Shown here piece after piece: positions 11,761 through 28,517 of a stretch of DNA of 64,000 nucleotides (the stretch's first letter is position 1; each line of letters opens with the position of its first letter). The DNA is taken from NCBI GenBank assembly GCA_038065255.1, contig JBBTRI010000004.1, positions 15,080 to 79,079 on the forward strand, written 5' to 3'. The DNA is from Patescibacteria group bacterium. GTDB taxonomy: Bacteria; Patescibacteriota; Patescibacteriia; JACQRZ01. Under the pieces are notes generated by a model that saw only the letters and a list, made by a program, of their open reading frames with translations, ran no database searches and was not told where the DNA came from. Position numbers and translations under genes: made by a program.

Positions 11761-11763
11761 CAT

Positions 11764-12180
11764 ATGATTTTTTTAACCATAGACTCATCGGTATTTCTCT
11801 CATCTCTCCTTGAGCGCGATCATTACCATCAAACATCTCTTGCATTTTTTTCCCACATTCATCAACATCCATACATTACAACATTACCCATGATTGTTGT
11901 TCTTGAGATAGCAAATATTCTATCAAAATATAACAAAGATCCCCGGCCGGCAATCGAGTCCCTCATGGCACTCACCATTTTACCCCACGACCAGTCCACA
12001 ATTGAAGAAGCTATCACTATATTCAAAAGACTCCACCTCAAAACATCCGATGCACTTGTGGTATGGTGCGCCTATGTATCTGAAAGCACGCTCATCTCAT
12101 GGGATAAACAGCTTATCCGCCAAGCCCAGAAACTCATTGAAGCATCTACGCCATCTGATTTTTTGAAAAAGATGATTTAA
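11764..12180 (+). CDS. PIN-domain ribonuclease toxin (VapC-like)
   Basis: N-terminal IFLTIDSSVFL (conserved Asp) and C-terminal TSDALVV...SWDKQL acidic residues, at the size typical of VapC and tightly coupled to the upstream antitoxin. Confidence 0.6.
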   Translation: MIFLTIDSSVFLSSLLERDHYHQTSLAFFSHIHQHPYITTLPMIVVLEIANILSKYNKDPRPAIESLMALTILPHDQSTIEEAITIFKRLHLKTSDALVVWCAYVSESTLISWDKQLIRQAQKLIEASTPSDFLKKMI

Positions 12181-12188
12181 AAGCAGTT

Positions 12189-13181
12189 TTATTCTTCCAG
12201 AATCGATGCAAACATGAGCGGCGCAACAATCGTTGCGTCTGATTCAATGACAAACTGGGGTGTTGTCTCGTCAATCTTGCCCCATGTTATTTTTTCGTTT
12301 GGCACTGCCCCGCTATAGGAACCATAGGATGTCGTACTATCGGAAATTTGGCAAAAATATCCCCAGTAGGGAGCTGCCTCTTTGAGGTCCTGGTTCATAA
12401 GCGGCACAACACATATAGGAAAGTCTCCGGCAATTCCTCCACCGATTTGAAAGAATCCTACTGACGAGCTCCGAGAAGCCATGCGATACCAGTCGATAAG
12501 AAATGCCATTGTCTCAAGCCCTGATTTTACAACATGGTATCCGCTGAGTTCTTTTTTTATGACATTCGCAACAAACATATTACCAAGGGTCGAATCCTCC
12601 CAACCTGGTACGAAAATAGGAAGATTCTTTTCGCATGCGGCGATCAACCAGGAATGTTGTTCATCAATTTGATAGTGCTCCCTCACGAGATTCTCGCGAA
12701 TTACCTGATACATATACTCATAGGGAAAATACCGCTCCCCCGCTCTATCCGCTCTCTGCCAGACAGAAAGCACTGCGCGTTCAATGCGCCGCATGGCGTT
12801 TTCTTCAGGAATACAGGTGTCCGTTACGCGATTCATTGCTCGGTCTCGGAGTGCCACTTCATCAGACTTTGTGAGATATCGATACTGGGGAACGCGCTCA
12901 TACTCATTGTGAGCAACAAGATTGAATATATCTTCTTCAAGATTAGCTCCCGTACAGCAAATCGCATGAACCTTATCCTTACGGATCATTTCGGCAAGTG
13001 AAATGCCAAGTTCAGCCGTGCTCATTGCGCCGGCAAGCGTCAGAAACATTTTTCCGCCATTTTTCAGATGCGATTTATAGCTTTCAGTTGCATCTTTGAG
13101 TGTTGCGGCATTGAAGTGGTGGTAGTGCCGTGAAATAAATTCTGTCATGTTCATAGAATGCAAATTATGAATGTACACCAT
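12189..13181 (-). CDS. deoxyhypusine synthase-like protein (DHS / homospermidine-synthase superfamily)
   Basis: CCTGANLEEDIFNL and FFQIGGGIAGDFP resemble the TAGGVEEDL and GGGxxKHH NAD/spermidine-binding motifs of DHS-family enzymes. It is the last gene of the long minus-strand operon. Confidence 0.55.
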   Translation of the reverse strand: MVYIHNLHSMNMTEFISRHYHHFNAATLKDATESYKSHLKNGGKMFLTLAGAMSTAELGISLAEMIRKDKVHAICCTGANLEEDIFNLVAHNEYERVPQYRYLTKSDEVALRDRAMNRVTDTCIPEENAMRRIERAVLSVWQRADRAGERYFPYEYMYQVIRENLVREHYQIDEQHSWLIAACEKNLPIFVPGWEDSTLGNMFVANVIKKELSGYHVVKSGLETMAFLIDWYRMASRSSSVGFFQIGGGIAGDFPICVVPLMNQDLKEAAPYWGYFCQISDSTTSYGSYSGAVPNEKITWGKIDETTPQFVIESDATIVAPLMFASILEE

Positions 13182-13190
13182 TGTAATGCA

Positions 13191-14288
13191 CTACGCAGAC
13201 TTTCCCCACATGGCAACGTTTATATCGAGCCTATGAAGGCGGCGCTCAGTGCTGACAATACCCACAAGAGGACGCATGTACTCGCGGAGGGTTGGAAATT
13301 CAGCAATAATTGCCTCGCTTATCTCGCGATACATCCAGCGCGCACTTTCTTCTGCCGCTCGCCAGTCATCGTAATAGTCCGTATCCCGATCAAACGACTC
13401 GTTGACGAGCAGAACAACTCCATCTTTTTTGCTCACCCGCCCTTCTTCAATATTTTCAAAAATGATATGCGCGCCGGTAAGGCATGTTTTAATAAAATTA
13501 GGATCCCAGGATTTTATTTTAATGGCTGAGTTCCATGTGCGGATGTAATCAAACCTATTTCCCACAGCCAATATCCACTCATTATGGTCGAGATCTTCGG
13601 ATGAAACTTTTTCCGTCCGCTTCTTCATGACAAGCATGCGGTTGAAAAGCATGCGGTCTGTGAGAAATTGAATCATCCCCTGTGGCATTTCGGGATAAAG
13701 CTTTGGGAGTCTTTCTTTGAGAAGTGCTTCGCTCTCTTGTTCGGAATGCTGAATAAGCATAGTTGCTTCTAAAGTCTCATCTTTATTTCCATGAAGAATA
13801 ATAGAACGATCATCCGTATTGATTCCAACAAGAACGGTATACACCTGCCGAGTTCCCCCTTCGATAAAAAGTGTTCGTGTGACACGGTCAAATTGGTCGC
13901 GTACCGCAGTCTGGCCGGCAACGGCTTTTGAAGTGTCGTAGTCATACCCCTTGCAACAAAAATCTTTCCCTTGGGAAGAAAAGTGATAGGTAACAGGAAT
14001 CAGGAGCGCCTTCCTCCTCTCGCCGGCGCTTCGTACGCGCCGCTCAAAATGCGGTTTGAATGCCGGCCAACCAATGTCGATCATACCGCCAATAGTACGC
14101 ACCGGGTACACCCACGCAAACGGCGCACCGGTAGCTTCAGTAAAATCTGCTCGCCCGTCCATGCATTTGATCGCCATGACGCTGATATTATATTTGGTAT
14201 CAAAATAACGCCGGTCTCCCTCTGTTTCATGATAGAGGCGTTCGGCTTCATCGCTCATTTTTGAAATGCGATTAATAGGAGTTGGCAT
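13191..14288 (-). CDS. hypothetical protein (365 aa) encoded within the complex-I-like operon
   Basis: 4-bp and 10-bp gaps to its neighbours. It contains a CMDGR (C-x-D-x-R) motif and an H...CC pair. I recognised no confident family. Confidence 0.5.
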   Translation of the reverse strand: MPTPINRISKMSDEAERLYHETEGDRRYFDTKYNISVMAIKCMDGRADFTEATGAPFAWVYPVRTIGGMIDIGWPAFKPHFERRVRSAGERRKALLIPVTYHFSSQGKDFCCKGYDYDTSKAVAGQTAVRDQFDRVTRTLFIEGGTRQVYTVLVGINTDDRSIILHGNKDETLEATMLIQHSEQESEALLKERLPKLYPEMPQGMIQFLTDRMLFNRMLVMKKRTEKVSSEDLDHNEWILAVGNRFDYIRTWNSAIKIKSWDPNFIKTCLTGAHIIFENIEEGRVSKKDGVVLLVNESFDRDTDYYDDWRAAEESARWMYREISEAIIAEFPTLREYMRPLVGIVSTERRLHRLDINVAMWGKSA

Positions 14289-14291
14289 AGA

Positions 14292-15836
14292 CTACACGTC
14301 ATTACCTGAATAGGATAAATTAAAACTTTTGTTTATGAGCGGAAAATCAGGAACCATATTCCCCTTCCCTGCATGTCCTAACACTGTCCAATTAATAAAT
14401 GATGGGTCGCGCACATCCACTCGACAAATTGATCCGTCTCCATCTGTTGCAACTACGTATATGATATCACCTCGCCAGCCTTCCACAATACCAACAGCAT
14501 AGGAGTTGGAAGGAAGTTTAAGGCGAGAAAGATCATTGCCAATACAGGGTCCTGAAGAAATATCACTCAATGCTTTTTGGAGGATATCGAACGAGGAATA
14601 CACCTCATCTATTCTGACACGAAATCGAGCATAGACATCACCTGAATGATATGATGGAATAGGAATCGAAAAGTGATCATATGCGGCATAGGGGTGGTCT
14701 TTGCGTGCATCGTATGCAAACCCAAGTGCTTTTGCAGCAACACCAACAACCCCATGATCCTTGGCAATTGTATAATCAAGGCTGCCTGTATGCCGCAAGC
14801 GCTCAATAAGCGAGCTATTTCGAAGCGCAACAGCCATAACTTCAGAAAAATCTTTTCGCACAGACAGAAGTGTCTGCCGTACCGATTCAAGGCAACCATT
14901 GGAAATATCTTTTTGAACTCCGCCAATCGTATTCACTCCACGCAAGAATCTGCTACCTATTAGAAAATCATTAAGCTGCATCACCACCTCCCTCAAACGC
15001 GCACCATGTGATCCGCCGAAATTAAATCCCGTGTCAAGCATGATGGCACCGATATCTCCAAAGTGATTTGCAAGCCGTTCCAGCTCACAGAATATCACAC
15101 GAATATATCGAGCTCGGATAGGAACAGGTATCGATCCCAATTCTTCGAAAGCTTGGCACAATGCAAGTGAATGACTAAATGAACTGTCTCCGCTCACGCG
15201 CTCAGAGAGCCGAAGCTTGTCTTTAAGGGCAAGGTGCTCAAATAACTTCTCACTGCCCTTGTGTGAGTATCCAAGCCGTGCCTCCAGATGAAGAATCTCT
15301 TCACCTGCTACGCTAAAACGAAAATGTCCCGGCTCAATAATGCCTGCATGCACCGGTCCAACGGGAATTTCGTAGATACCCTCACCCTGAACATGCCGAA
15401 AGGTAAACTCACCCCTTGCCGGAGATGGGCGCTCATTCCATGCAAAATCTTTTCTGAGTGGAAAGAGATTCTGAGGCCATTGTTCGTGAAGTATAAGTGA
15501 GCGAAGATTTGGATGCCCTATTGGTACAATTCCAAACAAGCTTGCTATTTTTCGTTCATGAATCGATGCCTGATGAATGATGGGTGTAAGTGAAGGAAAT
15601 GTCTCTTGCACGCATATGGTAGGTGTTTGAAAAATATGCTCTTCGGGATTGCTAAAAAGATACATAATCTTAAAATTCCCCGTCTGTTCTCGCTCATCAA
15701 AAGCAGTGATTGTTTTTAATGGAAAACCTCTCTCGTATAATTCTTTGCATGTTGCAAGAATATCGCCTTCAGGCACATTGTATATATTGAGGTTGTCGCA
15801 AGGCCTATTATTTTGTATTGGTAAAGGTTTCGTCAT
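14292..15836 (-). CDS. fused NuoC/NuoD-like subunit ([NiFe]-hydrogenase group 4 large-subunit homolog) lacking the NiFe-binding cysteines
   Basis: GPVHAGIIEPGHFRF and LGYSHKGSEKL are NuoD/HycE signatures. The N-terminal RxCGxC motif reads ERVSGDSS and the C-terminal DPCxxC motif reads DPSFINW. Confidence 0.8.
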   Translation of the reverse strand: MTKPLPIQNNRPCDNLNIYNVPEGDILATCKELYERGFPLKTITAFDEREQTGNFKIMYLFSNPEEHIFQTPTICVQETFPSLTPIIHQASIHERKIASLFGIVPIGHPNLRSLILHEQWPQNLFPLRKDFAWNERPSPARGEFTFRHVQGEGIYEIPVGPVHAGIIEPGHFRFSVAGEEILHLEARLGYSHKGSEKLFEHLALKDKLRLSERVSGDSSFSHSLALCQAFEELGSIPVPIRARYIRVIFCELERLANHFGDIGAIMLDTGFNFGGSHGARLREVVMQLNDFLIGSRFLRGVNTIGGVQKDISNGCLESVRQTLLSVRKDFSEVMAVALRNSSLIERLRHTGSLDYTIAKDHGVVGVAAKALGFAYDARKDHPYAAYDHFSIPIPSYHSGDVYARFRVRIDEVYSSFDILQKALSDISSGPCIGNDLSRLKLPSNSYAVGIVEGWRGDIIYVVATDGDGSICRVDVRDPSFINWTVLGHAGKGNMVPDFPLINKSFNLSYSGNDV

Positions 15837-17278
15837 AAGAGTTCTGCTGCTTTTGTTAGAAGTTCGGAAAGACCTGGCGGGAGATACACGCTCAGAATGA
15901 TAAGTATGAGTGAGAGAAGAATGGAAGGTGTAAGTACATACACATTAGATTCACCCCTTAAAACAGTTGGCGGCGCCTCACTGAACGCCATTGATACGAT
16001 GTGGCGCAAAAATCCCACAAATACAAGCACCAGCGAAACAAGAAGTATTACTGATGCAAAGCCATAGTGGGCTATGCCTGCAACTAAAATATGTATTTCT
16101 GTAATAAACATCCCAAAGGGCGGAACACCCGTGATAGCAAGAAGGCCACAAAACAGAAGAACGGTGCTCACAGGAAGAATTGTGATCATGCCTTTGATAT
16201 TTGAAATTCTAGAAAGGCCATATTTAAGAAAAAGAGAGCCGGATATGAAAAACAACAATGACTTTGCAATTGAGTGATAGATCATATGGAGTAAAGCTGC
16301 CCATATGCCCAATCCGCCAAATCCGCATCCCAGGGCGATAATACCCATATGTTCAATACTGGAATAGGCAAATAGCCGTTTGTATTTCTTTTGTGCCAAG
16401 ATAATAAACGCAGCAATGACCACTGACACCAGTCCAAAACCGATGAGCATCGTATTGGAAAACGATTGTTCGACCACCGAATCTGTAATGATTTTAAATC
16501 GAAAAATAGCGAGGAGTGCAACATTCAACAATGCACCCGAAAGAAGCGCACTAATCGGCGGGGGCGCCTTGCTGTGCGCATCCGGAAGCCACGTATGCAT
16601 GGGAGCAAAACCAACCTTTGTCCCATATCCTACAAGGATAAAAATAAAGGCAATCTTTAATAGATCAGGGTTAAATTCAGATACATGCTCGGAAAGTGAG
16701 TGCCAACCTGGAAATCCAAGCATGTCTACCGATGATTCACCGGCAAAAAAAAGCAGTGTTCCGAAAAAAGCCAATAGTAGTCCAATGGAATTAATCAATA
16801 GATATTTCCATGCCGCTTCTGTTGCTGAAGCCTTGTTGTAAAAGCTAATAAGGAGCGTGGTTGAAAGCGTCGTTGTTTCGATTGCAATCCACATGAGGAT
16901 GGGACTTGCTGAAAGGACACCGGCAAACATAGCAGCAACAAATAGTTGGTAGAGAAGAAAATATTGCTTTACTCTCCGAAAGCCGATAATTCCCTTCTTC
17001 ACTTCCTCGCGAAGATAGCCAATTGAATAGATTGAAGAAAAAACAGATACAATAATAACGGTAAGGAGTACGATACCGGAAAGGGCATCAAGAAAGAAAA
17101 ATGGTGCGAATGATAGTTCCTGTGCCGTATGAAGTTGCACAAACACTCCCACGGCGGTAATAATTTCTGCACAGGCACCAATACAATAAAGCGCATCGAA
17201 CATTCGAATATTTTTTCGAACAAGTACGCCAACAAGACCAATGAGAAGCGGGATGAAAACAAGAAATGTAAGTTCCAT
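15833..17278 (-). CDS. NuoN/NuoM/MrpD-family proton-conducting antiporter-like subunit (HyfF-like)
   Basis: PMHTWLPDAHSKAPPPISALLSGALLNVALLAIFRF matches the complex I antiporter-subunit signature. It has about 14 predicted TM segments. Confidence 0.8.
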   Translation of the reverse strand: MELTFLVFIPLLIGLVGVLVRKNIRMFDALYCIGACAEIITAVGVFVQLHTAQELSFAPFFFLDALSGIVLLTVIIVSVFSSIYSIGYLREEVKKGIIGFRRVKQYFLLYQLFVAAMFAGVLSASPILMWIAIETTTLSTTLLISFYNKASATEAAWKYLLINSIGLLLAFFGTLLFFAGESSVDMLGFPGWHSLSEHVSEFNPDLLKIAFIFILVGYGTKVGFAPMHTWLPDAHSKAPPPISALLSGALLNVALLAIFRFKIITDSVVEQSFSNTMLIGFGLVSVVIAAFIILAQKKYKRLFAYSSIEHMGIIALGCGFGGLGIWAALLHMIYHSIAKSLLFFISGSLFLKYGLSRISNIKGMITILPVSTVLLFCGLLAITGVPPFGMFITEIHILVAGIAHYGFASVILLVSLVLVFVGFLRHIVSMAFSEAPPTVLRGESNVYVLTPSILLSLILIILSVYLPPGLSELLTKAAELL

Positions 17279-17281
17279 AAA

Positions 17282-17938
17282 TCAATCGATTAATCGCTTC
17301 ATGGCACTTGTATCGAGTGAACCGAACTGCCGGAATATCAGTGAGGCAAGAATGGTTGCCATAATCACCCACACAAGAATACTTACGGTTATGCCAAGTT
17401 GTAACGCGGGATTCTGTTCGAGACCTGCAAAGAGAGCAAAAGAAATTATCCCATTCTCCAATGAAAGATATCCCAGCATCTGAGAAAAGATTCCCTTTCT
17501 GTTTATTATCAAAAAAAGTGAAATAAGGATGATTGCAAATGGCAGAAGGAGAAATTCTTGTCCGACATTATTCAATACGATAAGTTCTTTAAAAAGAGTT
17601 GAACGTGTAAGTGCCGTAAGGCAGGCAATAATAACAAGTGTCAGAGGCATCGAGCAATAACTGCCGGCTAAAAATGTGAGTTGATGTTTTCGGATAAGGA
17701 GGTAGAAAAAATATGGCGTGATGACAAGCTTGATTGCTATGGTTGCTGCCAACGCAACATAGAGCAATGGAGATGCTGCGCCAAGATAGGATGCAATGAG
17801 TAGTAATGCCAATACTGCGGTTTGGACAACATAAAGAATAACGGCCGTTTTGTTATTTTTAACCAAATGCAGCACAACAACAGTCAAAAAAATAATTGCT
17901 TCGAAAAGAAAAAGAAGTTGAGGAGATAGTGTAAACAT
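17282..17938 (-). CDS. small polytopic membrane subunit (HyfE / Mrp small-subunit-like)
   Basis: A 218-aa all-hydrophobic protein placed between the NuoH-like and NuoN-like genes, as HyfE is in hyf operons. The assignment rests on position, size and the LENGI motif, and the family assignment is uncertain. Confidence 0.45.
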   Translation of the reverse strand: MFTLSPQLLFLFEAIIFLTVVVLHLVKNNKTAVILYVVQTAVLALLLIASYLGAASPLLYVALAATIAIKLVITPYFFYLLIRKHQLTFLAGSYCSMPLTLVIIACLTALTRSTLFKELIVLNNVGQEFLLLPFAIILISLFLIINRKGIFSQMLGYLSLENGIISFALFAGLEQNPALQLGITVSILVWVIMATILASLIFRQFGSLDTSAMKRLID

Positions 17939-17942
17939 ATTC

Positions 17943-18923
17943 TTATAGTGTTAATCCGAGAGCAACAATACAGATGACAAAGGAAGTTGCAAGAAGACTC
18001 GGCAATCGAAATATGCGAAGCTTTGCAATACTCGATTCAATGAGAGCGATAGCCCCGCAAAGTATACATATCTTTATCGCGAAGTAGACAAGCCCTATGA
18101 ATAACGCAATGGGATCGAATGTATGCGCAATGCCGTAAGGAAAAAAAATACTTGCTGCCAGTGAAAGAAAAATCATATATTTTTGGGCAGCTGCCCATTC
18201 TATGAGAGCAAGCCGCTTGCCGGAATATTCCAATATCATCGCTTCATGAATCATCGTCAACTCCAAATGCGTTGATGGATTGTCAAAAGGATACCGCCCC
18301 GTTTCAGCAAGAAGCGCAATAAAAAATCCGCTAAATGCTAGCACGACTGGCGCCAAGTTCGACAAAGAGAGCGACCCTACCCCATTTGAAATACCAAACA
18401 TGTTTGTAGTGTGCGTGAGAAGTGCGAGTACAAAAAGTGAAAGGACAAGCGTCCCTTCGGCAAGTGAGGAGACCATCATTTCTCGACTTGAACCAAATCC
18501 GCCGAAAGCTCCTCCTGTATCAAGCCCAGCTAAAGCAAGAAAAAATGTACCAAATGCCATGCAGTAAACAAGCACAAGAAAATCCCCACTGCCACTCTTT
18601 GCAAAAGCTGTCGTAATGAGAGGTATATTGAAACCAACAAAAAGAAAGAGTGAACACAGGATATAGGGAGTAAAGCGAAATATCCACGAAGCATCCACAC
18701 TCAAAACTTCATCTTTATGGAATAGCTTCCAGAGATCACGATAGGGCTGCAGCACAGAAGCGCCACACCTCTTTTGCAATCGTGCCTTGAGCATTCTGGT
18801 AATTCCAATACAGAGCGGGGAGAAAATCGGAATAATGATGAGTTGAATAAGTGAAGCAAAGAAAAATGACATACTGAAAATATTACAGCGCAAGTGTTGC
18901 GAGAAGAACAATAAGCGCTCCAA
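17943..18923 (-). CDS. NuoH / HycD / HyfC-family membrane subunit
   Basis: RYPFDNPSTHLELTMIHEAMILEYSG matches the NuoH signature (PFD..E.E.EL..G...EYSG). Confidence 0.8.
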   Translation of the reverse strand: MERLLFFSQHLRCNIFSMSFFFASLIQLIIIPIFSPLCIGITRMLKARLQKRCGASVLQPYRDLWKLFHKDEVLSVDASWIFRFTPYILCSLFLFVGFNIPLITTAFAKSGSGDFLVLVYCMAFGTFFLALAGLDTGGAFGGFGSSREMMVSSLAEGTLVLSLFVLALLTHTTNMFGISNGVGSLSLSNLAPVVLAFSGFFIALLAETGRYPFDNPSTHLELTMIHEAMILEYSGKRLALIEWAAAQKYMIFLSLAASIFFPYGIAHTFDPIALFIGLVYFAIKICILCGAIALIESSIAKLRIFRLPSLLATSFVICIVALGLTL

Positions 18924-20925
18924 AGATATAGACTATATACATATTCACATTACCGCTCTGTATGGCGCGTGCACGATCCGAAATGGCGTTTATAACCCTT
19001 GTAAGACGATCATAGAATACAGCCCTATAAATATCATGGAGTTCCAATGTAATAACATTACGTTGAGGAAAATAGCGCGCATGAGAATCTGAATAATCCG
19101 TAACCACGCTTTTAGTTGGAAATAAGATAGCCCTGAAAATGGTAACCAGCGAACGACTAAACCCCGTTGCTGTTATTTCCATTCGAGATGTAAGGTCTGT
19201 GCCACAATCCCATGTCCTTCCATATCTCACGCGTTGGCGAGGAAAAAATAATTTCACACCCAAAAGAATACTGACGAACATGATACATAATCCTAATGTA
19301 ATGATTGGCATTGATACGGCAGAAAATCCGTTCTGCACAACGAGAAGCCCAGCAGCCGTATCGAACACACGCTCCTGTGAAAGTTGTGGAAATTGTCGAA
19401 CAATGACTTCCAGCGTACTAACAATCGTTGTTGCTCCAAGACCAAACAATAACGTAAGGAGTGCACAGAATGCCATGCTTATTCTCATGCTTATAGCCAC
19501 TTCTTGGGCAGCAGATGCATGCTCGCTGCGCGGACGGGCTAAAAACATTATGCCAAATGCTTTTACAAAACATGCTGCCGCAAGACCCCCGGTTAAGGCA
19601 AGCGCACCGATAGCAGAAATAGTAACTATCTTTGGAATAAGACTTAAAGATATAACCCCCTGAAAGAGAGCTTGAAACGTAAGCCACTCACTTACAAATC
19701 CATTAAACGGTGGCAGTGCGGAAATGGCCATCGATCCGATAAGAAATAGGAAGGCTGTCTGAGGCATGCGCTTAATAAGCCCGCCGTATTCCTCTATATT
19801 ACGTGTATGTGTTGCTGAAATTACTGATCCGGCACCCAAAAAGAGCAGAGCTTTAAACAATGCGTGATTTACCGTGTGGTAGAGAGCGGCAACACTCGCC
19901 AATACGGCAAGCCCATACTGATGCGAAGACACAAAAACAAGCGAACTCCCAAGACCCAATAAAATAATGCCGATATTTTCAATACTATGATAGGCAAGTA
20001 ATTTCTTACTATCATGCTCTGAAAGTGCATAAAGTACTCCCAGTAGCGAAGAAATGATTCCAAGGACGAGCACCACCAAACCCCACCACTGCGGGATGTC
20101 GGGAAAAAAATCAAGGCATATGCGAAAAAGCATATATATGCCTGTTTTGATCATAACGCCTGACATCAGCGCAGACACATGGGATGGAGCCGCAGGATGT
20201 GCAGCAGGCAACCAAATATGGAGGGGAATAATGCCGCATTTTATGCCGAACCCTATAAGGGCAGCGATAAACACAGCATCACGAACTAAGAATGGAATAA
20301 GATTGGAGGATGTTCGAATGGTATCAAAATCAAACGATCCAACGGAATGATAGATGAGTAAAAAGGCCAAAATGATAAACGCCGTACCAACATGAGTCAT
20401 AATAAAATATAGCGAACCTGCGCGTACATTTTCCTGCACTCTTCGTTCATACATAACAAGAACATACGATGCCAACGCCATAATCTCCCATACTATGAGA
20501 AAATAGAGCGCATGATTCGCCGTTACAACAAGAATCATGCTTACGATAAAAACGTTGTAAAAAAATGATAAAATTCCTATGGAATATTTTTGATAAAAAT
20601 GCTTGACGTAACCAATCGCGTATATCGAACACAACAAAGACAGAAGAGAAATAATTCCCATGAAGAACGCGGATAATAAATCAACTTTAATTGATATGGT
20701 AAGGAGTGGGAATGGCGAGGAAATAGTGTATACGGGAATCACTCGGCTTATAATAACGTGTGCGGAAAAAAGAAGCCCCCCGATTGATCCCAGTATGGCA
20801 AAGAAAGCCCCTAAAAGATTGGCGAGTTCGTCGTATTCATACAACAAGAGTGACACACACGCACCAATTGCAAAGAGTGAGATAATAGCAAAAAAACCAG
20901 TCTGAGAGAGGATACTGTCAATCAT
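18883..20925 (-). CDS. NuoL / MrpA / HyfB-family antiporter-like subunit (680 aa)
   Basis: IIPLHIWLPAAHPAAPSHVSALMSGVMIKTGIYMLFR, with a length and TM pattern like HyfB/NuoL. Confidence 0.8.
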   Translation of the reverse strand: MIDSILSQTGFFAIISLFAIGACVSLLLYEYDELANLLGAFFAILGSIGGLLFSAHVIISRVIPVYTISSPFPLLTISIKVDLLSAFFMGIISLLSLLCSIYAIGYVKHFYQKYSIGILSFFYNVFIVSMILVVTANHALYFLIVWEIMALASYVLVMYERRVQENVRAGSLYFIMTHVGTAFIILAFLLIYHSVGSFDFDTIRTSSNLIPFLVRDAVFIAALIGFGIKCGIIPLHIWLPAAHPAAPSHVSALMSGVMIKTGIYMLFRICLDFFPDIPQWWGLVVLVLGIISSLLGVLYALSEHDSKKLLAYHSIENIGIILLGLGSSLVFVSSHQYGLAVLASVAALYHTVNHALFKALLFLGAGSVISATHTRNIEEYGGLIKRMPQTAFLFLIGSMAISALPPFNGFVSEWLTFQALFQGVISLSLIPKIVTISAIGALALTGGLAAACFVKAFGIMFLARPRSEHASAAQEVAISMRISMAFCALLTLLFGLGATTIVSTLEVIVRQFPQLSQERVFDTAAGLLVVQNGFSAVSMPIITLGLCIMFVSILLGVKLFFPRQRVRYGRTWDCGTDLTSRMEITATGFSRSLVTIFRAILFPTKSVVTDYSDSHARYFPQRNVITLELHDIYRAVFYDRLTRVINAISDRARAIQSGNVNMYIVYIFGALIVLLATLAL

Positions 20926-20928
20926 ACG

Positions 20929-21456
20929 TTACGAATTTTTTTGATCTGGGGAGATGTCATCAAGAATGGTATGAAGCGACTTCAATATTGTGAGTGGTGA
21001 TGGCGGATCTCCCGGAATAGCATACTGTACCGGCACTACTGTATGCGCACCATCACACACTGCATATGATCCTTTAAATATTCCACCGTCAATTGCGTCA
21101 TCCCCAAGCGCAACAACAATATTCGGAGTTGGCATTGCTTCATAGGTCCGCACGAGAGCTTCTCTCATATTGCTACTTACCGGCCCGGTAACAATAAGCA
21201 TATCGGCATGTCGAGGCGATGCAACAAAACGAATGCCAAACCGCTCGACGTCATAATATGCATTCCCCAATGCTACCAACTCTTGTTCGCATGCGTTCGT
21301 CGAACCGGCTGTAACCACTCGAATAGCGAGCGATCTATTAAAAAGTTTTTTTATTTTTTTTTCCAATGCAAGGCCCAAATCAAGAACTTCATTCGAACCT
21401 AAACATTCTGCACGAGAAATAACAACCTGCTTCGTTGACAGCGTCTTATACAGCAT
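20929..21456 (-). CDS. NuoB-like / hydrogenase small-subunit-like protein with a degenerate Fe-S cluster site
   Basis: ASPRHADMLIVTGPV is the NuoB hallmark. The cluster ligand positions read STNACEQE (CC becomes AC), ALGDDAIDGG (C becomes D) and IPGDPP (CPP becomes DPP). Its start lies 3 bp after the atpC stop. Confidence 0.8.
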   Translation of the reverse strand: MLYKTLSTKQVVISRAECLGSNEVLDLGLALEKKIKKLFNRSLAIRVVTAGSTNACEQELVALGNAYYDVERFGIRFVASPRHADMLIVTGPVSSNMREALVRTYEAMPTPNIVVALGDDAIDGGIFKGSYAVCDGAHTVVPVQYAIPGDPPSPLTILKSLHTILDDISPDQKNS

Positions 21457-21459: not shown

Positions 21460-21876
21460 CTACGCGGTATTTTTTCGATGTTTTCTTACGACATGCAAAC
21501 GAGCAAGTTCTTTTTCCAGTTTCGCTGCGATGATTGCGTATTCAGTTGTATCAAATGCTTGTTGGGTAAGGAGCTCTGCTGCACGCCTGTGCGCTTCTTG
21601 AGCGCGTTCTTCGATGATTTCTTCCACGCGCTCGGCAGTATCGGCTAAAATAATGATTTGCGTATTCTGCACTTCGAGCATGCCGGTGGATACAACCATG
21701 GGAATTATTTCGCCATCTTTTTTAATCGTAAGTTCACCGGATTTCAATAAACCTACCAACCCGACATGCTGCGGCAGTACGGTAATCTCACCGCTCTGTG
21801 TGGGAATGGTTACCTGGTCTACCTCGCCGTCATAGATGATCCGTTCCGGCGTTATTATACGAAGTGCAGTGGGCAT
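21460..21876 (-). CDS. atpC: F1 ATP synthase epsilon subunit
   Basis: LRIITPERIIYDGEVDQVTIPTQSGEITVLPQHVGLVGLLKSGEL is typical of the epsilon N-terminal beta-sandwich. Confidence 0.85.
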   Translation of the reverse strand: MPTALRIITPERIIYDGEVDQVTIPTQSGEITVLPQHVGLVGLLKSGELTIKKDGEIIPMVVSTGMLEVQNTQIIILADTAERVEEIIEERAQEAHRRAAELLTQQAFDTTEYAIIAAKLEKELARLHVVRKHRKNTA

Positions 21877-21887
21877 ACTTGATGTGT

Positions 21888-23264
<1,377 letters not shown>

Positions 23265-23291
23265 TCATAATTCATAATCGGTAAGATAGTG

Positions 23292-24167
23292 TTATTCCAA
23301 AGCAGCGCGGCCAGATGAAATTTCTGCAATTTCCTGCGTAATGCCCGCTTGGCGGATTTGGTTATACGTGAGGGAAAGATCGGAAAGCAGATCAGAGGCT
23401 GATGATGTCGCATTGTGCATCGCGAGCATACGTGCGCTATGTTCGGATGCTTCGCTTTCGAGGACTGCTTGAAAAATCTGCACATCCAGAAGACGAGGTA
23501 AGACTGCCTTGATTACTTCTGTATCCGACGGCTCAAAAAGAACCGGTAAAGTTGCTGTTGTGCCTTCCCTGTGGTGTTCCTCAACCTCGAGCGGCAGGAG
23601 TGTTTTGGCAACCGAAGACTGTTTAACCGAGGAAACAAAATGCATGGCAACAAGTATGACTTTATCAAGCTCGCCGCGGATATACATATCGCTGATAACA
23701 TGGGAGATTGGCGCAACATCCATAATAGAACGAGTGATATCATTTTTTGGAAAATCCGCCTTGACAGTGTACCCGGAGCGAGCAGCAAGCTCTCCCCCTT
23801 TCTTGCCTAGAGAAAAAAGTAGGGTATGTGTTGCTCCAGATTCTTTCTCGCGAGCTACGGTACGCTGGACCTGTGCAAGAAGTGCATTATTGAATCCTCC
23901 GCAAAGCCCTCGATTGGTACTCACAAGAACAATGCCTAATGTTTTCACAGGACGTTTTGCAAGGAGTGGATGAAGCTGCTCATCATGATTTGGATCCAAG
24001 CGACTAAGTATATCCCATGCAGTTGTTGCATAGGGACGTGTTGCAAGAGCCGCAGTCACTGCACGCCTCATTTTGGAAGCGGAAACAAGCTCCATTGCCT
24101 TTGTCATTTTTTTTGTATTGCCGATTGATCGGATCTGCCGGCGGATTGCAAGCGTACCTTTTGCCAT
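23292..24167 (-). CDS. atpG: F1 ATP synthase gamma subunit
   Basis: The N-terminus MAKGTLAIRRQIRSIGNTKKMTKAMELVSASKMRRA and the C-terminal helix are typical of gamma. Confidence 0.9.
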   Translation of the reverse strand: MAKGTLAIRRQIRSIGNTKKMTKAMELVSASKMRRAVTAALATRPYATTAWDILSRLDPNHDEQLHPLLAKRPVKTLGIVLVSTNRGLCGGFNNALLAQVQRTVAREKESGATHTLLFSLGKKGGELAARSGYTVKADFPKNDITRSIMDVAPISHVISDMYIRGELDKVILVAMHFVSSVKQSSVAKTLLPLEVEEHHREGTTATLPVLFEPSDTEVIKAVLPRLLDVQIFQAVLESEASEHSARMLAMHNATSSASDLLSDLSLTYNQIRQAGITQEIAEISSGRAALE

Positions 24168-24169
24168 AC

Positions 24170-25702
24170 TTACAGCTGTGCCGTAGCATTAAAATCTGTG
24201 ATTGCTTTTTTGAGAAGGTGTTCTGTTTCTTCGTTAAGCTCGCCAGTTTCGCGGATCGACTGGAGTACGATTTTCTCGTTTGCACTTTCAATATAATTGA
24301 TAAAGTGTTCTTCCCATTTTTGGATTTTATCCACTTCAATTGTATCGAGGTGTCCGTTCACGCCTGCATACAGCAGAACAACCTGCTGTTCAACGGGACG
24401 TGGTTTGTATTGTCCTTGCTTGAGTAATTCTGTAAGCCGCTTACCCCGATTGATTTGTTTTTGCGTTGTTTCATCCAGATCTGATCCGAATTGAGCGAAT
24501 GCGGCAAGTTCGCGGTACTGTGCCAAGTCAAGACGGAGACGGCCGGCAACTTTTTTCATCGCTTTTGTTTGTGCAGATGAGCCGACACGAGACACCGACA
24601 AACCAACATTCAAAGCGGGGCGTATGCCCTGGTAAAAGAGATCTGTTTCCAGGTAAATTTGTCCATCGGTAATGGAAATAACGTTTGTGGGAATATATGC
24701 AGATACATCGCCTGCCTGCGTTTCAATAATAGGCAGAGCGGTCAATGAACCGCCACCATTGTCAGCATTTAGTTTTGCAGCGCGCTCCAACAAACGTGAA
24801 TGGAGGTAAAAAATATCGCCAGGATATGCCTCGCGCCCCGGCGGTCGACGCAATAAAAGCGAAAGTTGGCGATACGCAACCGCATGCTTGGAAAGATCAT
24901 CATAGACAATAAGTACGTCCTTACCCTGTTCCATAAAGTATTCTCCCATTGCGCATGCTGCGTAGGGAGCTATAAAACTCATGGCCGCCGGATCGGATGC
25001 ACCTGCAAGTACCACTACTGTATAATCCATTGCGCCTTCTTCGGAAAGGCGTGAAACAATTTTTGCAATTTTAGATTCCTTCTGTCCTATTGCTACATAG
25101 ATACAGAATACGGGAGCGCCTTTTGCATATTCACTCTTTTGGCTGATGATGGCATCGAGCGCCACGGCAGTTTTGCCTGTTTGGCGATCGCCGATAATCA
25201 GTTCTCGTTGCCCTCTGCCAATTGGTATCATTGCATCTACTGCCGTTATGCCCGTAATGAGCGGCTGCCGTACCGATTGTCGCGTGATAACACCCGGAGC
25301 GATTTTTTCAATAGGATAAAAGGTATCCGTAGCAATGGGCCCCTGCCCATCAATAGGTGCTCCAAGAGCATCAACAACACGACCCACAAGACCGGGACCT
25401 ACCGGAACTTCCAGAATACGTCCCGTAGGTTTTACGCGATCGCCCTCTCTTAAACTCCTGAAATCTCCCAAAATCATTGCGCCAACAGTATCTTCTTCAA
25501 GATTCAGTACGACACCCATAACCGTTGAACCATCATGGGAAAGAAATTCAAGCATTTCCGATTGACGCGCATCTGCCAACCCGGAGATTTTTGCAATACC
25601 ATCCCCTACTTCGATAACATTACCTTCTTTTTGGACCTGTAGATCGCTTTTGAAAGATTCAAGCTGCTTCTGAAGTGATTGTATGAGATATTCTGATGAC
25701 AT
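24170..25702 (-). CDS. atpA: F1 ATP synthase alpha subunit
   Basis: [17 protein letters not shown]-loop, and 510 aa. Confidence 0.95.
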
Positions 25703-25716
25703 AATAACGTATTCAG

Positions 25717-26127
25717 TTAGGCATGGGCACTTTTTTGTAAATGGCGACGTAATGCATGGAGGCGTCCCGCATCGCTAGCATCGACGACAAGGTCTTGTGC
25801 TTTCACTCTGAATCCTCCGATGAGATCCGCATCGACAGTAAAGGAAATATTGCTCTTTTTCCCGTATGATGCATGGATCATTTCCTCGAACATCTTTTTT
25901 TCATTGGCAGTGGGTTGGCTTGCGGTTGTAATAGTTACGCGAACAGAGCCCTCGAGGCGACTTGTGACATCACGCAACGATCGTGCTACCGCACCTGCCG
26001 TTCGAAGCAATCCTTGCCTAGCTAAAAAAGATACAAATTCATGTATCATGGTATCAATCTGCTGATGTGTTTTGCCTTTTGCCAGAGCAAGGAGGCTTTC
26101 CGCATATCGCTGGGGGGCTATCTTCAT
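25717..26127 (-). CDS. atpH: F1 ATP synthase delta (OSCP) subunit, short form
   Basis: The call rests on position between atpF and atpA and on OSCP-like helices. At 136 aa it is shorter than usual. Confidence 0.7.
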
Positions 26128-26627
26128 ACGTTTTTTTTGAGCCGATCAACGGCTTTTTTAGCAAGATCTTTTGAAATCTTTTTTTCACCGCTTGTTTGTG
26201 CTATCGATGCAGATGCCTGCACAACGAGATCAACAATATCTTTTTTTGCATCTTCGAGCATTTGTTGTTTTTCCTGTTCTATGCGCGTCTTGGCCTGAGT
26301 AACAACGCGCTTCACTTCTTCACGAGTTTGCTTCACTGTTTCTTGCCGATGCTGCTCCGCTAATGCCGATGCTTCTTCCAAAATCTTTTCTGCTTCTTTC
26401 TTTGCCTTGAGAACGATTTGCTTATAGGTCTGGTCGGTGAGTTTCAGCTTCTCTTCAGCTGCATCGGCATCTGCCAACCCTTTTTCGATCTTTGCAGTGC
26501 GCTTTTCAAGCAATGCAAGAAGGGGCTTATACAAGAGCTTGTACAGGGCAAAAAAAAGAATTGCGAAATTGACAAGTTGGGCTACAAGCAACCTCCAATC
26601 AACACCGAGTGATGTGAGGATTTCCAT
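26124..26627 (-). CDS. atpF: Fo ATP synthase b subunit
   Basis: A single N-terminal TM segment followed by a long charged helix (KEAEKILEEASALAEQHRQE...), in the expected operon position. Confidence 0.75.
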   Translation of the reverse strand: MEILTSLGVDWRLLVAQLVNFAILFFALYKLLYKPLLALLEKRTAKIEKGLADADAAEEKLKLTDQTYKQIVLKAKKEAEKILEEASALAEQHRQETVKQTREEVKRVVTQAKTRIEQEKQQMLEDAKKDIVDLVVQASASIAQTSGEKKISKDLAKKAVDRLKKNV

Positions 26628-26648
26628 AGATGGTGTATGACTAAAAAG

Positions 26649-26963
<315 letters not shown>

Positions 26964-26998
26964 TTATTGTAGCGCACATTTTGAAGGTGTCAACAGGT

Positions 26999-27181
26999 CT
27001 ACTGACCTTTCCTAATCATCTTAACTGATAAAATGTATGATTTTGAGTCGGATTCGATATTCTGGAGCCTCAAAAAACCGCAATTGTATCCGTAGATACG
27101 ATGAGGATTTTTTGAGGCGAAGAACGAGAAGGCGGCAAAAATCATAGGCTTTAGCGTTAAGATGATTAGGAAAGGTCAGTA
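26999..27181. repeat. 183-bp element bounded by perfect 26-bp terminal inverted repeats (MITE-like or structured-RNA candidate)
   Basis: tactgacctttcctaatcatcttaac at 26999-27024 is the exact reverse complement of gttaagatgattaggaaaggtcagta at 27156-27181. A nested inverted repeat lies inside (gcctcaaaaaa ... ttttttgaggc). Confidence 0.6.
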
Positions 27182-27187
27182 AGTGCA

Positions 27188-27216
27188 TAAAAAAACCTCG
27201 CTGTGAGTAGCGAGGG
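27188..27216 (-). terminator. rho-independent terminator for the minus-strand gene ending at 27227
   Basis: On the minus strand the sequence reads cctcgct-actcac-agcgagg followed by a run of seven T. Confidence 0.55.
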
Positions 27217-27226
27217 AGGTGAATAC

Positions 27227-27838
27227 CTATCTTGAAGGATTTGTTGCTTGCTCGTTTTTGAGCTCATCTACTGAACCGGGGTTCTCCCAGGGGAAAAATA
27301 CTGCCTCGTGACAATCGATATCTCTGAGCTTATCATGAGTTCCTAGCGGAGTATCCGAACCGGGATACATAGACTGAATAATCATCGCGGGAGTATCCCC
27401 ATCAAAACGGGGTTGCTCTAGACTATAAATGACCGTAAGTGTTTTCGTCAGTGGAGCAGGAACTGTTGGGTCTTTTACGCGCCATGCCCGTGTCCACTTA
27501 TTCGGATTAAATTCTTCTATATCAAAGGGGATATCGAATAGGTGTACGGCTGAAGCCCAGCCAACATAGGATGGGTACTCGATTTCAACACTCCACGTAC
27601 CGCAGGGATCGGGCTTATTAGAAAGCACTTCTAGCGCTTCATCAACCAACTCTGAGAGGATAAAGGAGTCGGTAAGAAATTGGTTGTCATATTTCCACCG
27701 ATAGAAATTTCCTGCAAGCGGCTGCCCACTCTGGCGAAAACATGTCGACCGAAGGCGGTTGCGCTGACGAACCGGCAGAATGATGCGAATGGTTGAACCC
27801 TGATGTATCAATGAACAAGTATAGATGGTTTCCATCAT
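27227..27838 (-). CDS. hypothetical protein
   Basis: ORF with a probable ATG start at 27838 (MMETIYTCSLIHQG...), just downstream of a consensus promoter. The track ORF starts at an upstream TTG that coincides with the -35 box. I recognised no family. Confidence 0.4.
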   Translation of the reverse strand: MMETIYTCSLIHQGSTIRIILPVRQRNRLRSTCFRQSGQPLAGNFYRWKYDNQFLTDSFILSELVDEALEVLSNKPDPCGTWSVEIEYPSYVGWASAVHLFDIPFDIEEFNPNKWTRAWRVKDPTVPAPLTKTLTVIYSLEQPRFDGDTPAMIIQSMYPGSDTPLGTHDKLRDIDCHEAVFFPWENPGSVDELKNEQATNPSR

Positions 27839-28516: not shown

Positions 28517-28517
28517 T

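Follow-up and report, generated by a model that had tools for sequence, protein, structure and literature searches.

A CsoSCA2-type β-carbonic anhydrase encoded with the ATP synthase and an Ehr membrane module in a Patescibacteria bacterium

The 365-aa protein encoded at 13191..14288 (minus strand) of the window, the 64-kb stretch of Patescibacteria DNA analyzed here, is a CsoSCA2-type β-carbonic anhydrase (CA), i.e., a compact, non-carboxysomal CsoSCA-like enzyme. Its gene is the second to last of a tightly packed minus-strand unit, which runs from the F1Fo ATP synthase through six Ehr genes to csoSCA2 and ends with a deoxyhypusine synthase (DHS)-like gene. In genomes of many phyla, relatives of the gene were recurrently linked to membrane (proton-pumping) and inorganic-carbon systems. 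The explanation we favor overall, and hold to be somewhat better than evenly balanced, is that the protein is an active zinc CA serving the Ehr/ATPase machinery, with the DHS-like gene as a neighbor.

Fold and active site of the 365-aa protein

The protein is annotated at NCBI as 'hypothetical protein', and its matches to Pfam PF20686 and TIGR02701 are weak. The best Foldseek matches of its AlphaFold (AF2) model (pLDDT 86.6) were the CsoSCA structures 9g4t, 2fgy and 8thm, with E values from 5e-17 to 7e-15, TMq of 0.69-0.73 and alignments of 386-399 columns. A profile of the family searched against PDB sequences also found CsoSCA, at E 1e-9, and aligned the ligand motifs of the two.

The earlier note had likened CMDGR to the C-x-D-x-R zinc-ligand motif of β-CAs and had pointed to an H...CC pair further on. 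In the protein, CMDGR occupies residues 42-46 (codons 14151..14165, minus strand) and aligned to pCADGR of CsoSCA, which places the first zinc ligand at C42 and the Asp-Arg dyad at D44 and R46. H102 and C111-C112 follow 56-66 residues later. The codons from H102 to C112 (13953..13985, minus strand) cover the second and third zinc ligands with an H-x9-C spacing, and YHFS...C aligned to the YHFS...C of CsoSCA. C42, D44, R46, H102 and C112 were invariant in 13 close-to-distant homologs. Among 149 representatives of the CsoSCA2 family, whose median identity to the window protein is 26%, these five residues were conserved in 138/138, 148/148, 148/148, 149/149 and 148/149 of the non-gap cases, respectively, a conservation far beyond chance. 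The zinc-ligand reading of CxDxR was therefore borne out by both the CsoSCA-type match and the near-invariance of the motif. The H...CC pair survived in part: H102 and C112 are near-invariant, while C111 is unconserved and is replaced by Gly in 133 of the 149 representatives. The structure matches, the ligand motifs in register and the near-invariant catalytic pentad together identify the protein as CsoSCA type and establish its fold and catalytic residues. We infer that it has carbonic anhydrase activity.

The protein consists of two short N-terminal helices (residues 4-21 and 23-33 in the model, preceding the first strand), the catalytic domain and a C-terminal pseudo-domain that is defunct, and inspection of the sequence found no Cys/His/Cys set in the C-terminal half. 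This layout resembles that of CsoSCA2, the non-carboxysomal CsoSCA homologs reported in phyla of the Candidate Phyla Radiation (CPR) by Sutter, Kerfeld & Scott 2022 (PMC9164163), which are about 350 aa long, with a roughly 40-aa two-helix N-terminus, an active and a defunct domain, all CA active-site residues and a gene outside the carboxysome locus. The Nitrosomonas oligotropha CsoSCA2 used in that study belongs to the family collected in this analysis (L060). According to the same paper, enzymology has been reported for no CsoSCA2 member.

The carboxysomal CsoSCA structures (2FGY, 9G4T and 8THM) have the same fold, the same Cys-His-Cys zinc site and the same Asp-Arg dyad. The His-to-Cys spacing is long in both CsoSCA and the window protein compared with the HxxC of canonical β-CAs. 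In contrast to carboxysomal CsoSCA, to which its identity is 15-18%, the window protein lacks the roughly 140-aa (144-aa) N-terminal domain and the Rubisco-binding peptide, and it starts about 35 residues before the catalytic domain. Its gene is not in a cso operon after csoS2 but has atp, Ehr and DHS genes as neighbors, and no cso or cbbLS gene families were found in the annotated parts of the window. A Pfam profile search gave no match of the protein to PF10070 (DabA). True DabA genes were recognized at other loci, with PF10070 at E 7e-194. Within its family, the window CsoSCA2 belongs to a long-branch subgroup with about 30% identity to most members, and a word-index search returned 12 relatives.

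The minus-strand unit and its Ehr module

Both open reading frames were confirmed on the minus strand, at 13191-14288 (365 aa) and 12189-13181 (330 aa). The spacing was as tight as the earlier note had claimed, although the exact gaps were 3 nt and 9 nt instead of 4 bp and 10 bp: the NuoCD-like gene ends at 14292, 3 nt before the ATG of csoSCA2 at 14288, and the stop of csoSCA2 is followed after 9 nt by the ATG at 13181. The F-type ATP synthase operon (21460..29258; atpI-like, a, c, b, delta, alpha, gamma, beta and epsilon) lies directly upstream of the Ehr genes, its atpC stop being separated by 3 nt from the start of the nuoB-like gene. The six Ehr genes encode a NuoB/HycG-like small subunit (20929..21456; aligned to HycG 7z0s), a 680-aa HyfB-like (NuoL-type) antiporter subunit (18883..20925; NF005086 'hydrogenase 4 subunit B', 678 bits versus a cut-off of 667), a NuoH/HyfC-like membrane subunit (17943..18923; PF00146, E 2e-40), a HyfE-like small membrane subunit (17282..17938; NF008556, E 6e-16), a HyfF-like antiporter-type subunit (15833..17278; PF00361, aligned to MBS, NdhF and MbhH chains) and a large subunit of the fused NuoC-NuoD/HycE-like type (14292..15836; PF00329 and PF00346, aligned to HycE 7z0s), all on the minus strand. 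A convergent PIN-domain gene on the plus strand (11764..12180; PF01850, E 4e-10) bounds the 3' end of the transcription unit. A promoter/terminator scan of 11400-22000 gave no excess over shuffled sequences (23 versus 23.9 and 9 versus 10.6); it detected no promoter belonging to the DHS-like gene itself, although it had no power to reveal an internal promoter of that gene or of the CA. These gaps and strands are consistent with co-transcription of csoSCA2 with the atp-Ehr unit.

The six-gene membrane module had been described as redox-dead, and alignments to HycE and HycG of 7z0s agreed with this prediction. The large subunit lacks all four NiFe cysteines, with RVCGICGFAHS changed to RVSGDSSFSHS and DPCYSCTD to NLSYSGND. 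The NuoB/HycG-like subunit has lost three of the four [4Fe-4S] cysteines, through the changes of CGGCNGCE to AGSTNACE, GACGNSGG to GDDAIDGG and PGCPP to PGDPP. The HyfF-like subunit keeps the TM5 Glu, TM7 Lys and TM12 Lys motifs. Judged from these residues, the module would be redox-dead and, with its antiporter channel residues intact, pump-competent. Across the Ehr clade, the former NiFe site carries a conserved Ser/Asp/Gly motif in its place and has not decayed. In the survey of large subunits, the regular expression for the first motif missed many variants (42 scored as 'none'), and the count of the C-terminal motif was used alone.

The group-4-hydrogenase-like subunit set and the large subunit without both CxxC NiFe motifs identify the module as an Ehr complex. 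Such six-gene group-4-hydrogenase-like clusters without NiFe cysteines were described in PMC7304191, where their function was stated as unknown and CPR Ehr was considered one that 'likely cannot interact with H2'; PMC10284858 likewise states of Ehr complexes that their 'function remains unknown'. The window Ehr differs from those of PMC7304191 in being embedded between atpC and a CA gene. In CPR Ehr the NuoB FeS ligands are gone as well, whereas the PGCPP cysteine is still present in 55 of 62 other members.

Gene neighborhoods of CsoSCA2 and the DHS-like gene

PF00361 antiporter-like (NuoL-type) genes were the commonest neighbor family of CsoSCA2, present within 7 kb in 26 of 75 loci. They belonged either to the same Ehr clade as in the window (in CPR, Proteobacteria and Nitrospirota) or to DabA clusters with three antiporter-like genes (in Nitrosomonas and others). 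The Ehr clade adjoins the CA in the window, L002, L013, L017, L029, L065, L066 and L079, with varied gene orders, and the derived motifs RVSGDSS and NKSFNLSYSGxD are common to the CA-linked Ehr loci. In the CA tree, the Ehr-linked CAs are scattered over at least 5-6 separate branches. At 15 loci the CA gene shares an operon with DabA and three PF00361 genes, and a SulP transporter adjoins CsoSCA2 in 9 loci; L105 and L107 have Ehr, SulP and CA all on one strand. Related Rhodocyclaceae carry one of two modules behind the CA at a common locus, of the DAB type in some and of the Ehr type in others. L050 was considered as a DabA/NuoB/CsoSCA2 hybrid and dropped, its NuoB-like piece being an 85-aa ORF that looks like a remnant.

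The co-occurrence check suggested by the earlier note succeeded from the CA side, as given above, and was weak in reverse: a CA was near Ehr in 2 of 80 loci of this Ehr clade within the fetched flanks, 36 of these loci extending at least 3 kb beyond one cluster end. Ehr is normally a self-contained six-gene unit. No link of CsoSCA2 to Ehr, DabA/antiporter, SulP or ATP synthase genes is described in PMC9164163, and a description of CsoSCA or carbonic anhydrase linkage to Ehr, hydrogenase or DabA clusters was not found in the literature.

Within CPR, atp, Ehr and CA genes recur in all pairwise combinations, and CsoSCA2 recurs directly after atpC. This order, in many cases with the same UvrD-like helicase gene next, is kept across distant CPR lineages without Ehr, and among the CPR syntenies of the CA, the one with the ATP synthase operon, rather than that with Ehr, is the most widely conserved. 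A relative with 86% identity has atpC, CA and DHS in succession with no Ehr between, indicating that the CA is independent of an adjacent Ehr. The window and this relative differ by the six Ehr genes as a single, precisely bounded block, and both junctions of the block have the similarity CGYGTAGnnTATGC, which is too short to carry weight. At three proteobacterial loci (L029, L065 and L066), the CA and Ehr genes converge and are not co-transcribed. Many CsoSCA2 loci have none of the tracked recurring neighbor families.

The last gene of the unit encodes a DHS/SpeY-family NAD-dependent aminobutyl-transferase-like protein. The longest ORF starts at 13181 (330 aa); the more likely start is M10 (ATG 13154), giving a 321-aa protein (12189..13154, minus strand) and a 36-nt gap, since the public annotation and nearly all homologs have 321 aa and the first 9 residues are unconserved in the 86%-identical relative. 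A 321-aa protein with 100% identity carries the annotation 'deoxyhypusine synthase family protein'. PF01916 matched over its full length (E 1e-44, profile positions 10-287 of 288), and TGANLEEDI and QIGGGIAGDF, which the earlier note had read as DHS-family motifs, are present. The equivalent of the catalytic Lys (human K329) is K302 in the 330-aa numbering (codon 12276-12278), where TWGKI aligned to SWNKI/SWGKI of archaeal DHS structures. Bacteria have EF-P and are not known to have eIF5A. The protein scored below the cut-offs of all NCBIfam DHS and SpeY equivalogs, including those for bona fide DHS (TIGR00321, 104 versus 304; NF002630, 112 versus 364) and for SpeY (NF002699, 105 versus 500; NF001980, 120 versus 450). 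Its most likely identity is that of a polyamine aminobutyl transferase of the homospermidine type. The SpeY/bacterial DHS homologs of Li et al. 2026 (PMC13625781) share the full-length PF01916 domain, the catalytic lysine motif and the nature of a bacterial stand-alone enzyme. The window protein differs from SpeY in scoring far below the SpeY-type cut-offs, as it does below that for archaeal DHS, and in having no partner gene nearby: no agmatinase/iminohydrolase or arginine decarboxylase gene was found near it in the window, and no agmatinase/iminohydrolase gene at the DHS-like loci of two other phyla. A Spermine_synth gene upstream of the atp operon in the 86%-identical relative was considered as a polyamine context and set aside, because it is not at that position in the window. 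The protein falls in a bacterial DHS clade of great size and striking conservation, which numbers more than 8000 sequences and maintains 70-77% identity across unrelated phyla, and in Omnitrophica and another phylum the gene lies among unrelated genes.

Proposed role of CsoSCA2 and alternative readings

We propose that the CA is functionally coupled to Ehr and the ATPase in membrane proton and inorganic-carbon handling. CsoSCA2 would interconvert CO2 + H2O and HCO3- + H+ in the cytoplasm and would most likely act as a cytoplasmic proton/bicarbonate source or sink for the membrane ion-translocating machinery. CO2 diffusing inward would be hydrated by CsoSCA2 at the membrane, and the Ehr/ATPase system would take up or supply the proton of this reaction. 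On balance, inorganic carbon would be trapped as bicarbonate and cytoplasmic pH would be controlled.

Several known systems bear on this proposal. In DAB (DabA/DabB) and S. aureus MpsAB, which occur in non-autotrophs too, a β-CA-like cytoplasmic protein is likewise encoded with a NuoL-type (PF00361) membrane protein. In the window, however, the CA is not PF10070, the partner would be the six-subunit Ehr rather than a single DabB, and the association is known from gene linkage. CsoSCA2 accompanies the DabA cluster in the 15 operons and does not replace DabA; since DabA is already a vectorial CA, CsoSCA2 must have another task there. The earlier note had invoked the Cup proteins of cyanobacterial NDH-1, an analogy of the right kind in view of the recurrent Ehr and DabA-antiporter linkage. 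NDH-1MS/MS' (CupA/CupB on NdhF3/F4-NdhD3/D4) is a precedent for a CO2-hydrating module on a complex-I-type membrane arm, and the γ-CA module of plant mitochondrial complex I for a CA attached to such an arm. The Cup and γ-CA proteins are unrelated in fold to CsoSCA2, and both complexes keep a powering redox module, whereas the window Ehr has no redox cofactor ligands.

CsoSCA2 might go further and be a docked catalytic head, bound to the cofactor-less NuoB/NuoCD stub of Ehr or to one of its antiporter-like subunits. Ions flowing through the membrane arm would then draw the proton away and make CO2 hydration one-way, as in the DAB and NDH-1MS pumps, and together with the ATP synthase of the same operon the assembly would be an ion-gradient-driven, one-way CO2-hydrating machine. 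The adjacency to one Ehr clade in several phyla with varied gene orders, the shared strand of Ehr, SulP and CA in L105 and L107, the alternation of Ehr and DAB-type modules in Rhodocyclaceae, the intact channel residues and the conserved motif at the former NiFe site are consistent with such docking. But most Ehr loci have no CA, the close relative keeps the CA without adjacent Ehr, and CsoSCA2 also accompanies DabA, itself a vectorial CA. Physical docking with vectorial hydration, suggested by analogy, is speculative, and we consider both it and the resulting machine unlikely. A free housekeeping CA that supplies bicarbonate for carboxylations, sitting at an ancestral CPR position (atp, CA, helicase) into which Ehr was merely inserted, is also a doubtful reading. 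The atpC-CA order kept without Ehr, the precise Ehr block and the many loci without tracked neighbors argue for it, and free CsoSCA2 could be active alone (PMC9164163). Chance, however, poorly explains a rare 7-kb Ehr cluster beside the CA in at least 5-6 independent CA lineages and two superphyla, and the DAB-type and SulP linkages add to the Ehr adjacency.

The β-CA superfamily includes COS and CS2 hydrolases, and the fold could serve such other small-molecule hydrolysis or a regulatory, non-catalytic role. We regard this as very improbable, since the complete set of CA ligands is invariant, as is the Asp-Arg dyad, and the DabA and SulP neighbors point to CO2/bicarbonate. The earlier note had suggested that both the CA-like and the DHS-like proteins are partners of the membrane module. 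Their tight spacing, the strand shared with the Ehr genes and the CA-DHS adjacency in a Peribacteria genome (L015; 32% and 41% identity) agree with two peripheral Ehr subunits. Against this, the DHS-like gene adjoins the CA only in the window lineage and L015 and is absent from every other Ehr-CA locus, the CA-DHS pair occurs without Ehr in L003-L005 and L015, and the DHS-like family consists of thousands of near-identical members in unrelated contexts. Synteny has already largely refuted this hypothesis, to which we give hardly any credence. The CA half of the suggestion retains its recurrent linkage, although only 2 of the 80 Ehr loci have a CA in the fetched flanks. The DHS half was not supported: given its absence from other Ehr-CA loci and its huge conserved family in unrelated contexts, the DHS-like gene is probably a lineage-specific neighbor or passenger and not an Ehr subunit. 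A functional CA-DHS pair was also rejected; with that restricted adjacency and no connecting chemistry, the pair was treated as inherited synteny.

The window and related loci link two widespread gene families, CsoSCA2 and Ehr, to each other, to DabA/antiporter clusters, to SulP and to the ATP synthase operon. This linkage leads to a hypothesis testable with existing assays, namely that the modules act on CO2, bicarbonate and protons at the membrane. Should the favored coupling of an active CsoSCA2 to Ehr and the ATPase hold, minimal, non-autotrophic CPR bacteria would join the organisms with energy-coupled handling of inorganic carbon or pH, and the retention of a putatively redox-dead relative of complex I would be explained. 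If the CA were in addition docked on Ehr, this would be another independent union of a CA with a complex-I-type arm, after mitochondrial γ-CA, cyanobacterial Cup and DAB, and would give the first assigned function for Ehr complexes and CsoSCA2; the Candidate Phyla Radiation would then have its first energy-coupled system for inorganic carbon.

A CsoSCA2-type carbonic anhydrase

The 365-aa protein encoded at 13191-14288 (minus strand), annotated at NCBI as 'hypothetical protein', gave weak direct HMM matches to PF20686 (E 0.007) and TIGR02701 (E 1e-4), which represent the catalytic domain of carboxysome shell carbonic anhydrase (CsoSCA). In an alignment of the 12 relatives recovered by word-indexed search from 5.8 billion proteins, C42, D44, R46, H102 and C112 are invariant. 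When the AlphaFold2 model computed from this alignment (pLDDT 86.6, pTM 0.85) was compared with the PDB by Foldseek, the best matches were three CsoSCA structures, 9g4t, 2fgy and 8thm (E 5e-17 to 7e-15, TM 0.69-0.73, ~390 columns), followed by ordinary beta-carbonic anhydrases. The family profile matched CsoSCA sequences at E 1e-9, with kCmDGR aligned over pCADGR and YHFS...C over YHFS...C, the positions of the zinc ligands and the Asp-Arg dyad. The earlier note had likened CMDGR to the first zinc-ligand motif of beta-carbonic anhydrases and pointed to an H...CC pair further on, and CMDGR, the His and a Cys of that pair are indeed in register with these residues. Its remark that the protein fits no recognised family no longer holds, as Foldseek and the profile place it with CsoSCA, whose non-carboxysomal homologs have been named CsoSCA2 (Sutter, Kerfeld and Scott, PMC9164163).

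CsoSCA2 proteins occur in several CPR phyla and have a two-helix N-terminus of ~40 residues, one active domain with a full active site and one defunct domain (PMC9164163). The model, with helices at 4-21 and 23-33 followed by the beta-carbonic anhydrase core, matches this description exactly. The protein is not a carboxysomal CsoSCA, because the N-domain and the cso locus are absent, and it is not DabA, because PF10070 is absent. An exhaustive search of 1.84 billion cluster representatives gave 547 clusters matching the profile (256 at E<=1e-30), mostly of ~350 aa, and 149 full-length representatives, with a median identity of 26% to the window protein, show next to no variation at the five catalytic positions. 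These comparisons establish the fold and the catalytic residues. Sequence and predicted structure mark the protein as a CsoSCA2-type carbonic anhydrase, probably active, and a new, divergent member of a known but uncharacterised family. High and dynamic expression was reported for a CsoSCA2 of Accumulibacter (PMC4796919), the relevance of which is unclear.

A small family of ~210-245 aa adjoins CsoSCA2 in several CPR loci (L009:1674-2312; L012:1-657; L034:8869-9609, minus strand; L063; L085). It showed weak beta-carbonic anhydrase matches (PF00484, E 0.007; PF20393, E 0.01) and HxxCG-like motifs but lacks the Asp-Arg dyad, and may be a degenerate second carbonic anhydrase-like protein.

The gene unit and its Ehr module

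The carbonic anhydrase gene lies in a run of minus-strand genes separated by gaps of a few bases. The run continues from atpC (21460-21876), the last of the F-type ATP synthase genes, through genes for NuoB-like (20929-21456), HyfB-like (18883-20925), NuoH/HyfC-like (17943-18923), HyfE-like (17282-17938), HyfF-like (15833-17278) and fused NuoC-NuoD/HycE-like (14292-15836) subunits to the carbonic anhydrase and a deoxyhypusine-synthase (DHS)-like ORF (12189-13181), and is bounded by a convergent PIN-domain gene (11764-12180, plus strand). The intergenic gaps in the earlier note were correct within one base, and its four motifs were all found in the two proteins. The spacing suggests that the carbonic anhydrase is co-transcribed with the atp and ehr genes, an arrangement that we did not find in the searched literature. 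Further upstream, the ATP synthase operon is split between the a- and c-subunit genes by an opposite-strand CopG-type antitoxin gene (28247-28516, plus) and a 202-216-aa ORF without a Pfam match (27227-27877, minus); L003, a close relative, carries a 217-aa gene at the same position, likewise without a Pfam match.

The six-gene membrane module is an energy-converting hydrogenase-related (Ehr) complex. Ehr in CPR was already noted by Jaffe et al. (PMC7304191), and its function has been described as unknown (PMC10284858). Compared by alignment with the formate hydrogenlyase of E. coli (7z0s), the small subunit lacks three of the four FeS cysteines (CGGCNGCE to AGSTNACE, GACGNSGG to GDDAIDGG, PGCPP to PGDPP) and the large subunit lacks all four NiFe cysteines (RVCGICGFAHS to RVSGDSSFSHS, DPCYSCTD to NLSYSGND); the window module contains no ferredoxin-like subunit. 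The antiporter-like subunit retains Glu in TM5 and the Lys motifs of TM7 and TM12, and therefore the membrane arm appears able to translocate ions.

A metagenome scan with the large-subunit alignment recovered 80 Ehr loci of the window clade, 40-61% identical. The motifs replacing the former NiFe site, R[VI]SGD[ST][ST] and FPLINKSFNLSYSG[TN]D, are conserved (window 14292-15836 and L096-L175, alignment A2), the second (NKSFNLSYSG[TN]D) or a near variant occurring in 59 of the 80 loci. Since the replacement residues are conserved across the clade, the site appears repurposed rather than decaying, which hints at a new, conserved function of the pocket. The loss of the FeS ligands (PGDPP) in the NuoB-like subunit is confined to CPR versions (window 20929-21456 compared with L065, L066, L079 and 62 metagenome loci), and the PGCPP cysteine is kept in 55 of 62 other clade members. 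The description of the module as redox-dead therefore applies fully to the CPR subset only, the window included. Two metagenome loci (L148, L163) carry two Ehr clusters or part-clusters in tandem on one contig.

Neighbours of CsoSCA2 and of Ehr

When one genome was scanned for each GTDB species, more than 576 were found to carry a relative of the carbonic anhydrase, including Patescibacteria, Nitrosomonas/Nitrosospira, Rhodocyclaceae, Nitrospirota, Desulfuromonadales and Myxococcales. We retrieved 79 loci, and tblastn with neighbour clustering resolved four recurrent contexts. The commonest neighbour is a PF00361 antiporter-like gene, within 7 kb in 26 of 75 loci, and it occurs in two forms. 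One is a complete Ehr cluster of the window's clade, found in CPR (window, L002, L013, L017) and Proteobacteria (L029, L065, L066, L079), with NuoB-like remnants in L032 and L050. The other, present in 15 loci, is a conserved operon in which DabA (PF10070, E 7e-194) and three PF00361 genes are joined by CsoSCA2, with gaps of a few to ~25 nt; no description of it was found in the searched papers. It is exemplified by Nitrosomonas oligotropha Nm75 (L060:3002-11035); the same layout is seen in L018, L021, L023, L037, L042, L045, L061, L062 and L081, and with the strand reversed in L051, L052, L070 and L090. Besides its three membrane subunits, this DAB-type cluster includes a second carbonic anhydrase.

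A SulP/STAS transporter adjoins the gene in nine loci. In many CPR lineages (L003-L010, L017, L019, L024, L027 and L030), the carbonic anhydrase gene comes directly after atpC, and in L025 and L036 it precedes the atp operon. A UvrD-like helicase-nuclease, located downstream of the carbonic anhydrase in the window, is often 3' in CPR atp-CsoSCA2 loci too, which points to an old CPR synteny of the three. The window copy (8485-11400, minus) is a 971-aa helicase fused to a PD-(D/E)XK nuclease domain, and homologs with 46-47% identity follow CsoSCA2 in the distant CPR loci L008-L010, L019 and L027. Just downstream of the helicase region lies a type IV pilus set (2513-7394, minus) with a T2SSF platform protein, five N-methyl pilin-like genes and a prepilin peptidase.

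The Ehr cluster varies in position: it precedes CsoSCA2 in the window, follows it in L002, L013 and L017, and runs convergently to it in L029, L065 and L066. The Ehr-linked enzymes fall in at least 5-6 separate places in a neighbour-joining tree. In one Rhodocyclaceae clade with a shared upstream Fe-ADH-like gene and closely related CsoSCA2 (~8500-18000 in each locus), the convergent module that follows is of the DAB type in L052, L070 and L090 and Ehr in L066, suggesting that either module can take the other's place there. For the carbonic anhydrase, the conserved synteny to which the earlier note looked is present, with homologs recurring beside Ehr or other NuoL-type modules in several lineages.

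From the Ehr side, CsoSCA2 was found in only two of the 80 loci (L105, L107), both in the order Ehr, SulP, carbonic anhydrase; 36 loci reach at least 3 kb past one cluster end and 15 past both. Apart from this, Ehr stands by itself as a unit of six genes that no seventh regularly accompanies, and in L101 and L156 it follows the atp operon without the carbonic anhydrase. In a close relative of the window (86% identical; L003-L005), the order is atpC, 16 nt, carbonic anhydrase and DHS-like gene, without the six Ehr genes; therefore, these six are either all there or all missing, as a single exact block. Both block junctions in the window (21457-21475 and 14289-14307) read CG(C/T)GTAG-nnT-ATGC, a likeness too short to be called a recombination scar.

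Proposed coupling to membrane systems

The linkage of CsoSCA2 to NuoL-type modules and bicarbonate-type transporters is highly non-random and spans several lineages, and atp, Ehr and the carbonic anhydrase recur as a three-way set in CPR. No account of the CsoSCA2-Ehr/DAB/SulP linkage turned up in the papers searched. We somewhat favor a functional coupling of CsoSCA2 to the neighbouring membrane systems, in which the enzyme would take part in the same process, handling CO2, bicarbonate and protons at the cytoplasmic face. Physical docking on Ehr, which would make CO2 hydration vectorial as for DabA on DabB and CupA on NDH-1MS, is a speculative and rather unlikely extension drawn from these analogues. 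Against it, the carbonic anhydrase seldom accompanies Ehr and persists where no Ehr adjoins it, and in loci that CsoSCA2 shares with DabA the vectorial role is already taken by DabA.

The DHS-like protein had also been proposed as a partner of the module. It most likely starts at ATG 13154, leaving a 36-nt gap, because the resulting 321 aa is the annotated length and that of nearly all homologs, and because the nine residues upstream are unconserved in a close relative. PF01916 covers it end to end (E 1e-44), and the lysine of the DHS covalent intermediate is kept (TWGKI over SWNKI/SWGKI of archaeal DHS structures). Against the NCBIfam equivalogs, among them archaeal DHS, 'homospermidine biosynthesis protein' and '1,9-bis(guanidino)-5-aza-nonane synthase', its scores all lie far under the curated cut-offs. 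The best-characterised bacterial homolog, SpeY, joins two agmatines en route to homospermidine (PMC13625781). The window protein is related to it, with no specificity assigned. Its matches at E<=1e-20 number more than 8000, and those from Omnitrophica, Acidobacteria and Obscuribacterales share 70-77% identity with it, a cross-phylum conservation unusually high for an enzyme without an assigned substrate. As the fourth recurrent context of CsoSCA2, the gene adjoins the carbonic anhydrase only in the window, L003-L005 and a Peribacteria chromosome (L015). In two genomes inspected, its homologs have no Ehr, carbonic anhydrase or polyamine partner nearby; one sits beside genes for aconitase, pseudouridine synthase and a LOG-family protein, and the other beside those for a cold-shock protein, family X DNA polymerase and inositol-phosphate synthase. 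With adjacency in few lineages and unrelated neighbours in the two genomes inspected, the proposed partnership is not supported; the gene is most probably a passenger, and a role of its product as a subunit is highly improbable.

The window system belongs to a known theme, a carbonic anhydrase plus a complex-I-type membrane module, in altered form.
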